Shown here: positions 23,566 to 24,861 of the stretch, one piece after another
Position numbering within the stretch: the stretch's first letter is position 1
How the letters are laid out: every line of letters starts with the position of its first letter
DNA from: Somniosus microcephalus
Taxonomy: Eukaryota
Assembly: GCA_052327205.1 (NCBI GenBank)
Contig: CM126208.1
Location: 96,658,001 to 96,722,000 of the forward strand
Length of the DNA stretch: 64,000 bases
Reading direction: 5' to 3'
Program-made: the position numbers and the translations under genes
Notes under the pieces: generated by a model
Databases searched by the model: none
What the model was told of the DNA's origin: nothing
The model's input: only the letters and a program-made list of their open reading frames with translations

Positions 23566-24306
23566 ATGACTTTCTCACCCACTACATTATCTCAAGTACT
23601 GTGGGTACTACATTATCTCTATGACATTACAACAGGATTGTGTTTCAGGATCGTCAACCCCAAGGAGTTGCAGTTAAATCTGTCTTGGATGTGTGCTACA
23701 TAACTATATTGTAATTTCAGAATTCAGATATATCCACAAGAACAACAATTCACAATTGGCACTAAAAAAAATGTTGAATGCAAATTGAACCCAAAGTAAT
23801 ATCAATTATAATGGGCCAGATTTTGCTGGAGCGGGACATCTCGCGGGGGGGCACTTTAGTTAGACTTGTTCGTGCACTTTTAGGTTTTAAAATTTTTTGC
23901 CCACAAAGTTGCTTGGCTTGCGAGCTGATAACTGTGCAATGTGGGCAACAGATCATCTGGGACCTTGGTAAACAACAGGACAAAGGGTGTATCTCCTTAA
24001 CCAATGAGATTTAAGGATTGAGTAATAAACAGAGGAAGGACTGAGATGGAGAGTGAATTAAAGTCAAATCGGGTACAGAAAGAGAAACAAAGAGAGGGAA
24101 AGAAAGATTAGATTAAGAGGAAAAGAAAAGAGACCGAAAGGAAAAGAAAAAAAAAATTGACATTCTTAAAATCTCTTAAAACAATTCACAACTGAAGGAA
24201 CGAGACTCCGCACTTACAATTGTTTACTTTCTGGGCAAGAGAGGTTGATTGGCAGTCATTAATAATTATCACATTGTTAAAAGGGTACTTACACTGATAA
24301 TTACAA

Positions 24307-24514
24307 TGATGTGGAGATGCTGGTGTTGGACTGGGGTGGACATATGTAAGAAGTCACACAACACCAGGTTATAGTCCAACAGCTTTATTTGAAATCACAA
24401 GCTTTCGGAGCGCTGCTCCTTCACTTCACCTGATGAAGGAGCAGCGCTCCGAAAGCTTGTGATTTCAAATAAAGCTGTTGGACTATAACCTGGTGTTGTG
24501 TGACTTCTTACATT
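24307..24514. mobile_element. Palindromic Penelope-type mini-element
   Basis: 12-bp TSD TGATAATTACAA (24295-24306, 24515-24526); perfect 80-bp inverted arms 24344-24423 and 24434-24513. Confidence 0.8.
24426..24462 (+). ncRNA. Minimal type I hammerhead ribozyme motif
   Basis: TCAC-CTGATGA-A-GGAGC(AGC)GCTCC-GAAA-GC-TT-GTGA: core boxes, stem II and stem I complementarity are all present. Confidence 0.75.
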
Positions 24515-24861
24515 TGATAATTACAAGACACATGTGACTTAACTTTCTGTGGCAAGTTTAATGGGCAAATGCAACAACTTCATGAAAATTAAGGGAAGGT
24601 TAAGTGGGAGATGCCAGTTCCGCAAAGCTAACGGTGGAGTAGCGCAAATCCGCAAAGCTAACGGCGGAGTGGCACAAATCGGCCAGCAACTTGTGACGAT
24701 TCACAATTCACGAGGTATCTCTTCCTCGCTACAAGTTGCTGGCCAATTTGCACAATAATGGCGTGTGTCGTTCAGACGCCGTTATTTTTTCAGCAAAATC
24801 CAGCCCAATGAGCATTGATTTGGAAATAAACTCAAGTACTTGGCAAAAATGAACCACTTAC

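Follow-up and report, generated by a model that had tools for sequence, protein, structure and literature searches.

The 208-bp insert that lies between direct repeats at 24295–24526 of the window (the whole 64,000-nt stretch of Somniosus microcephalus DNA analyzed here) is a real, young, and ordinary stub of a Penelope-like element (PLE), and its architecture has already been published. Judging from its letters, the insert is the promoterless 5′ untranslated region (5′ UTR) of an intact PLE of the same genome, doubled head-to-head. We consider it probable that the stub was made in one event, in which reverse transcription would have been primed from both target nicks on 5′ UTR RNA, a scheme whose every step is read from genomic fossils. 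The features of the insert and its host intron are as follows, where d is the distance from the tail end and L099 is the intact parent element.

22248..24861, minus strand: host intron 2 of a CHMP4 (Snf7-family) gene, 2,614 nt; Snf7 exons flank the insert
23812..24807, no strand: older repeat or repeats hosting the stub, MITE-like, with a 17-nt terminal inverted pair and high contig depth at both flanks
24295..24306, no strand: left target-site duplication (TSD), 12 bp, direct repeat
24307..24343, minus strand: PLE tail, 37 nt, unpaired; its outer end is the A of the element's start codon (L099:1425 = ATG)
24344..24423, minus strand: tailed arm, element 5′ UTR; stops at hammerhead position 7, core C3–A6 absent
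24419..24433, no strand: central junction and 10-nt loop, with 2- to 5-nt microhomology between the arms
24422..24514, plus strand: tailless arm, element 5′ UTR spanning inferred RNA start to internal initiation site, d130 to d38
24426..24462, plus strand: minimal type I hammerhead; stem I from 24426, core from 24430, predicted cut after 24458
24515..24526, no strand: right TSD, 12 bp, direct repeat

The arms (24344–24423 and 24434–24513) are 80 bp each, without a mismatch, and are separated by a 10-nt loop. The fold of the insert has a z score of −22.5, and none of 200 shuffles was equally stable. The perfect 80-bp arms, the 208-bp insert, and the 12-bp TSD of the original prediction were all confirmed by coordinates, as was its view that the TSD frames a real insertion. 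Compared to the letters of its family, the insert carries a single private substitution, at 24343 in the tail, and the tailless arm shows no differences. A MITE was ruled out for the insert by the 37-nt unpaired tail at one end and by the varying sizes of the copies; an assembly artifact was ruled out by the TSDs, the thousands of loci, and the varied junctions.

Exons matching Snf7 (PF03357) lie on the minus strand at 24855–25040 and 22133–22246 of the window, and exon 1 of the CHMP4 gene lies near 43.7 kb. The insert is therefore located within intron 2, at a distance of 347 nt from the exon 2 donor. The original placement in intron 2 of CHMP4C was borne out as to the gene family and the intron, while the assignment to paralogue C is tentative and based on sequence features.

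The intact unit, L099, contains a hammerhead, an ATG at position 1425, an 891-aa open reading frame (ORF), and a second hammerhead 3,148 bp further on. What we take to be its TATA box is located at L099:1268–1275, 30 nt above L099:1298, the presumed initiator. The putative RNA start, i.e., the initiator A, is placed at this L099:1298, which corresponds to 24423 in the window. Both arms of the insert represent the stretch between the TATA/initiator site and the start codon of this RT + GIY-YIG element, and the TATA box of the parent is absent from the 208-bp insert. The Penelope origin proposed earlier was thus upheld, since the insert has the sequence of the pLTR/5′ UTR of an intact PLE. In Pfam, the ORF matched the reverse transcriptase (RT) model RVT_1 (E = 1.4e-9), with no score for the endonuclease part; among solved structures, the ORF had no match. 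Its translation has a C-terminal GIY-YIG with a CCHH motif, the GIY-YIG enclosing two cysteines, and a CX4CxxC linker lies between the RT and the endonuclease of the ORF product (P0001). A CX2-5CxxC linker marks Neptune or Nematis PLEs (PMC8557442), and by this motif the parent can be assigned to the Neptune/Nematis type; the vertebrate distribution of Neptune suggests that it is the one of the pair. In two RNA runs, read depth over the ORF ranges from hundreds to thousands, with most reads falling on one strand, the sense strand under the usual library convention. Position 3619 in the linker zinc-finger region (L099:3619, 3639) is the start of many reads, with 674 molecules in one run and 300 in the other.

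The hammerhead of the insert has a conserved core, a 4-bp stem I whose 3′ strand runs to 24462, an extra A after position 9 (A9), a G10.1-C11.1 pair, a 5-bp stem II, and a loopless palindromic stem III. Core and helix features agree with a minimal type I hammerhead of the Penelope kind, as had been recognized, and the coordinates of the complete plus-strand copy at 24426–24462 match. The loss of the core from the minus-strand mirror copy was also correctly described: the copy ends at core position 7, and C3-U4-G5-A6 are missing. That only one strand has an intact copy simply follows from the points at which the two arms ended. Copies differ at position 7, while 17,400 genomic sites match the core pattern. 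An Rfam scan returned no hammerhead match; all 22 matches were below the gathering score and were mostly generic hairpin matches to miRNA models. For plus-strand RNA, the predicted hammerhead fold has an energy of −112.7 versus −160.6 kcal/mol for the hairpin; in read-through RNA, the hairpin is predicted to bury the ribozyme, at a cost of about 48 kcal/mol. When two copies were cofolded, the active dimer fold was not the minimum free energy structure. The hammerhead would be a passenger in the stub.

Genome copy number was looked at in the 6.4-Gb assembly, where a 33-letter tail pattern matched 5,357 times next to the 17,400 hammerhead core matches; both sets were even on the two strands, and control patterns had 0 matches. 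That copies with TSDs exist elsewhere was also established, a TSD-like repeat being present in 30 of the 30 closest copies retrieved, with varied centers. For the tail sample, we took 90 of the first 100 tail matches listed and removed three duplicates (L044, L048, and L159), leaving 87 copies; L157 and L160, which share a flank, were both retained. An opposed arm was present in 61 of these 87 tail-selected copies and formed the terminus in 53; the other 26 had no opposed arm within the DNA fetched. The 53 terminal opposed arms end at d32–49, 41 of them at d37–40. Exact TSDs of at least 8 bp, with a mode of 12 bp (25 of 53), flank 45 of the 53 two-armed copies, compared to 13 of 2,756 mismatched (shuffled) flank pairs, and the possibility that the palindrome is a fold-back artifact was dismissed on this ground, in line with the original prediction. 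Perfect stems of at least 80 bp recur in 5 of the 87 tailed copies and in 10 of the 30 closest copies. Of the two origins suggested for the mismatch-free arms, youth or homogenization, the latter is therefore unnecessary.

Several pairs of matches arose when an inserted copy was duplicated and not by a second insertion: L016 and L030 (G000:C4), 35 Mb apart, share their flanks and junction, and L043/L044, L047/L048, and L156/L159 are similar pairs. Seven matches of one rare variant at G000:C35:61.06–61.42 Mb, spaced by about 60 kb, form a large tandem segmental array.

The one-sidedness of the tail was assessed in 114 short pairs from loci chosen by non-tail patterns, i.e., irrespective of the tail. 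One arm was tailed in 111 pairs, neither in two, and both in one. The second arm begins 36 to 39 nt further in than the tail-end arm. The two arms of a locus have the same letter at 220 of 239 subfamily sites compared (92%; shuffled mean 71%, maximum 81% of 2,000), and their lengths are correlated (Spearman 0.54, n = 44). The longer arm is the tailless one in 19 of 44 loci and the tailed one in 24; since the tailless excess sometimes exceeds 900 nt and reaches 1.7 kb, neither arm contains the other. Arm lengths range from about 45 to over 2,900 nt, and the insert represents the short end of this size continuum.

The inner ends of arms accumulate in a narrow zone. Thirty-one of 140 fall within d117–132, i.e., 1.9 per nucleotide versus 0.27 to 0.7 in neighboring bins. 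At d129 stands an A with initiator-like surroundings, which follows the TATA box by 30 nt and marks the 5′ edge of ribozyme stem I. Since many arms also end at d128 (812 matches, with 28 of 30 sampled being ends, many of them by microhomology), the peak spans a zone instead of a single base. Genome-wide, the base before the initiator A is the templated C in 15,151 matches, G in 355, T in 132, and A in 82. Among sampled loci, true ends made up 30 of 30 for G, 27 of 30 for A, and 12 of 30 for T, which gives corrected extra-base counts of about 355 : 74 : 53 for G : A : T. This five- to sevenfold excess of an extra G at arm ends is likely a copied cap, with about half of the 30 G cases also being readable by eye as a 1-nt match to the partner arm or the TSD. 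At one locus (L173/L174), both arms carry the extra base. Extra G from cap copying is established for L1 and SVA (PMC4859970), and a TATA/initiator pair is described in a rotifer pLTR (PMC3846280). No pile of RNA-sequencing read starts was seen at the inferred start site in the best 15 of 24 start positions; ordinary RNA sequencing would rarely show one. Taken together, the peak of arm ends and the extra G suggest that the usual template RNA is probably capped and uncleaved, and the stubs appear to record where the element RNA starts.

Arm ends were also counted at the ribozyme cut (d93; 259 matches) and one base inside it (d92; 294 matches). Sixty-one of 94 sampled d93 matches were ends, compared to 23 of 70 at d92, a set from which three matches partnering d93 loci had been excluded; smaller first samples had given 14 of 30 versus 11 of 30. 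After microhomology-favored joints and internal deletions were removed by eye, the excess at the cut was about 1.7-fold. At three loci, both arms end exactly at the cut, with 2 to 6 extra letters. Among cut-end loci, 14 of 42 have a partner arm ending at d90–95, compared to 3 of 50 loci of the tail sample; coupling of arm lengths is, however, seen across the whole size range, and arms would likewise end at the cut after a stall at stem I or at the palindrome. RNA reads showed no pile at the cut among the matches listed. The enrichment is modest and at most suggestive of cleavage in vivo; cleaved RNA may have given rise to a minority of copies.

A poly(A)-signal hexamer (L099:1340–1348, in the region 1298–1427) lies between the ribozyme cut, which it closely follows, and the two initiation sites downstream. 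Given this placement, RNAs ending in the 3′ pLTR might lack both initiation sites, which could tip copying toward the 5′ pLTR and account for the abundance of short stubs.

In the proposed mechanism, the element's enzyme would nick both target strands about 12 nt apart, and the 3′ end of each nick would prime a cDNA, one at each of the two initiation sites. The template would probably be one capped, uncleaved RNA. Both cDNAs would reach or come near its 5′ end, with the cap copied as an extra G, and would be joined centrally by microhomology with the loss of a few bases, which in the present case would have cost one arm the core. The observed tail-out, head-to-head arrangement with its TSD is just what priming from both nicks would produce. 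An anole PLE assayed in vitro cut both strands and extended them, initiating at two sites on either side of the tail with uncleaved RNA as template (PMC11167929). A fuller version of the scheme is offered tentatively: one enzyme complex would copy one capped RNA from both nicks, dividing the labor in a fixed way between the tail end and the internal site, the cut-ending minority would reflect germline hammerhead cleavage, and the stubs would constitute a fossil map of 5′ ends.

The shared subfamily letters of the two arms and their correlated lengths could also be accounted for if one cDNA or an antisense template folded back and was copied, the second arm being trimmed later at the internal site; self-priming on an antisense template has been proposed for head-to-head repeats of rotifer PLEs (PMC3846280). 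However, the tailless arm outreaches the tailed arm centrally in 19 of 44 loci, which simple fold-back of one cDNA could not produce. In addition, only the tailed arm has a tail, the extra G at the sense-strand TATA/initiator site points to a capped sense template, and RNA over the ORF is mainly of one strand, sense by convention. We therefore regard fold-back as unlikely and priming from both nicks as the better account.

The original prediction had envisaged a separate, noncoding, retrozyme-like derivative of Penelope. This part did not survive: there are no tandem units and no TATA box, and arm lengths vary over the range given above. Only 12 copies genome-wide share the junction of the insert. 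Such exact sharing could be expected from a self-propagating nonautonomous mini-element, its 208-bp unit copied from masters, and the stub does hold both initiation sites, so that read-through RNA could in principle be mobilized in trans. Yet the 12 copies differ at subfamily sites (T, C, or A at core position 7, with other arm sites covarying), and two of them are untailed on the usual side. The same junction thus occurs on different subfamily backgrounds and tail polarities and therefore recurs by microhomology. A search for uniform units copied from masters found instead a continuum of sizes and these 12 copies on mixed backgrounds; moreover, the ribozyme is buried in the hairpin. The mini-element, already largely refuted, is very improbable.

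The remaining reading, co-option of the hairpin for small RNAs, editing, or an effect on CHMP4 splicing, is likewise very improbable. The minus-strand insert does fold at a predicted −154 kcal/mol close to the splice donor, and, as originally predicted, CHMP4 pre-mRNA would form an 80-bp hairpin. However, with one private substitution, the insert is too young for a conservation argument; 5 of 87 copies have equally perfect stems, a share that would extrapolate to a few hundred loci genome-wide; and tail and core matches are spread evenly over both strands. In two RNA runs, the host locus had an exon depth of 0.4 to 1.9 and a depth of 0 in unique intron bins, and 61 to 72% of the reads on the insert run into unlike sequence, i.e., belong to other copies. 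Contigs of two other runs are interrupted at the locus, and those joints that bypass the insert derive from paralogues of the repeat around it and thus reveal no empty allele. The hairpin in CHMP4 pre-mRNA is likely incidental.

An inverted pLTR with a one-sided 30- to 40-bp tail and a TSD is known from EN+ PLE insertions such as Pen2a_Av (PMC3846280; overview in PMC8557442). The shark insert likewise is an inverted, 5′-truncated copy, with a one-sided tail and a short TSD, of a parent whose ORF combines RT and GIY-YIG. Insertions of the Pen2a_Av type share with it head-to-head pLTR ends, a tail at one end, a TSD of 9 to 12 bp, and a TATA box and initiator in the pLTR; unlike these, the shark insert lacks the middle portion with the ORF, and each of its arms ends at the inferred RNA start. 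The Pen2a_Av papers leave the mechanism open or propose antisense self-priming (PMC3846280, PMC8557442). PAc, a Poseidon element of Anolis carolinensis, shares the two initiation sites bounding the tail, and its cutting and extension of both strands and use of uncleaved RNA as the main template match the scheme inferred for the shark (PMC11167929). PAc belongs to a different clade and its ORF starts inside the ribozyme (PMC11167929), whereas the shark element has its ribozyme about 100 nt ahead of the ATG and encodes a protein with a CX2-5CxxC linker. Metazoan PLE minimal hammerheads share with the insert the extra base after position 9, G10.1-C11.1, the palindromic loopless helix III, and the 4-bp helix I, while helix II has 5 bp in the insert versus 7 to 8 bp quoted for Schistosoma; pairs of such ribozymes on opposite strands, 100 to 700 bp apart, have been noted (PMC4209133). 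Non-LTR retrozymes (see also PMC7229834) are likewise noncoding, hammerhead-bearing, and PLE-derived, but they consist of units repeated directly in tandem and contain at least two ribozymes (bioRxiv 10.64898/2026.07.22.740005). The insert is a single inverted pair with one complete ribozyme and has no direct tandem units. L053 and L119 are very short head-to-tail tandems in which the ORF start is joined back to the tail, possible seeds of retrozyme-like arrays.

In L1 twin priming, the two cDNAs cover different parts of the RNA, whereas in the shark stub both would cover the same part, hence the palindrome. The two systems share priming of a second cDNA at the second nick, a microhomology joint, and an extra G at full-length 5′ ends (PMC4859970). 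In searches of openly accessible article texts, we found no paper on shark PLE palindromes, PLE twin priming, or a cap-derived G in PLEs. The inverted-arm architecture is published; the mechanistic map of ends was not found there.

As a locus, the insert is ordinary: a common PLE has left thousands of such stubs. The family counts (one tailed arm in 111 of 114 pairs, a 12-bp stagger, and ends at a capped start) provide precise predictions for the in vitro assay that exists for PLEs, which could be tested with the intact and expressed Neptune-type ORF of this genome. The origin of PLE inverted repeats and of the one-sided tail is described as unresolved (PMC8557442); if true, reading the stubs as a fossil map would explain both the inverted structures and the tail. 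The in vivo role of the minimal hammerhead is described as unknown (PMC4209133, PMC11167929).

Other repeats were observed in the window. The MITE-like nested target at 23812–24807 is high-copy and has an internal 25-nt inverted pair at 24675–24750. Just inside intron 1, beside CHMP4 exon 1, a tandem repeat of about 1 kb (42657–43682) has long open frames on both strands. Intron 1 also holds a 1-kb inverted repeat pair (31687–32711 and 36638–37702), 89% alike and 4 kb apart. A minus-strand stop-free frame of 769 aa at 61230–63539 is probably a retroelement.
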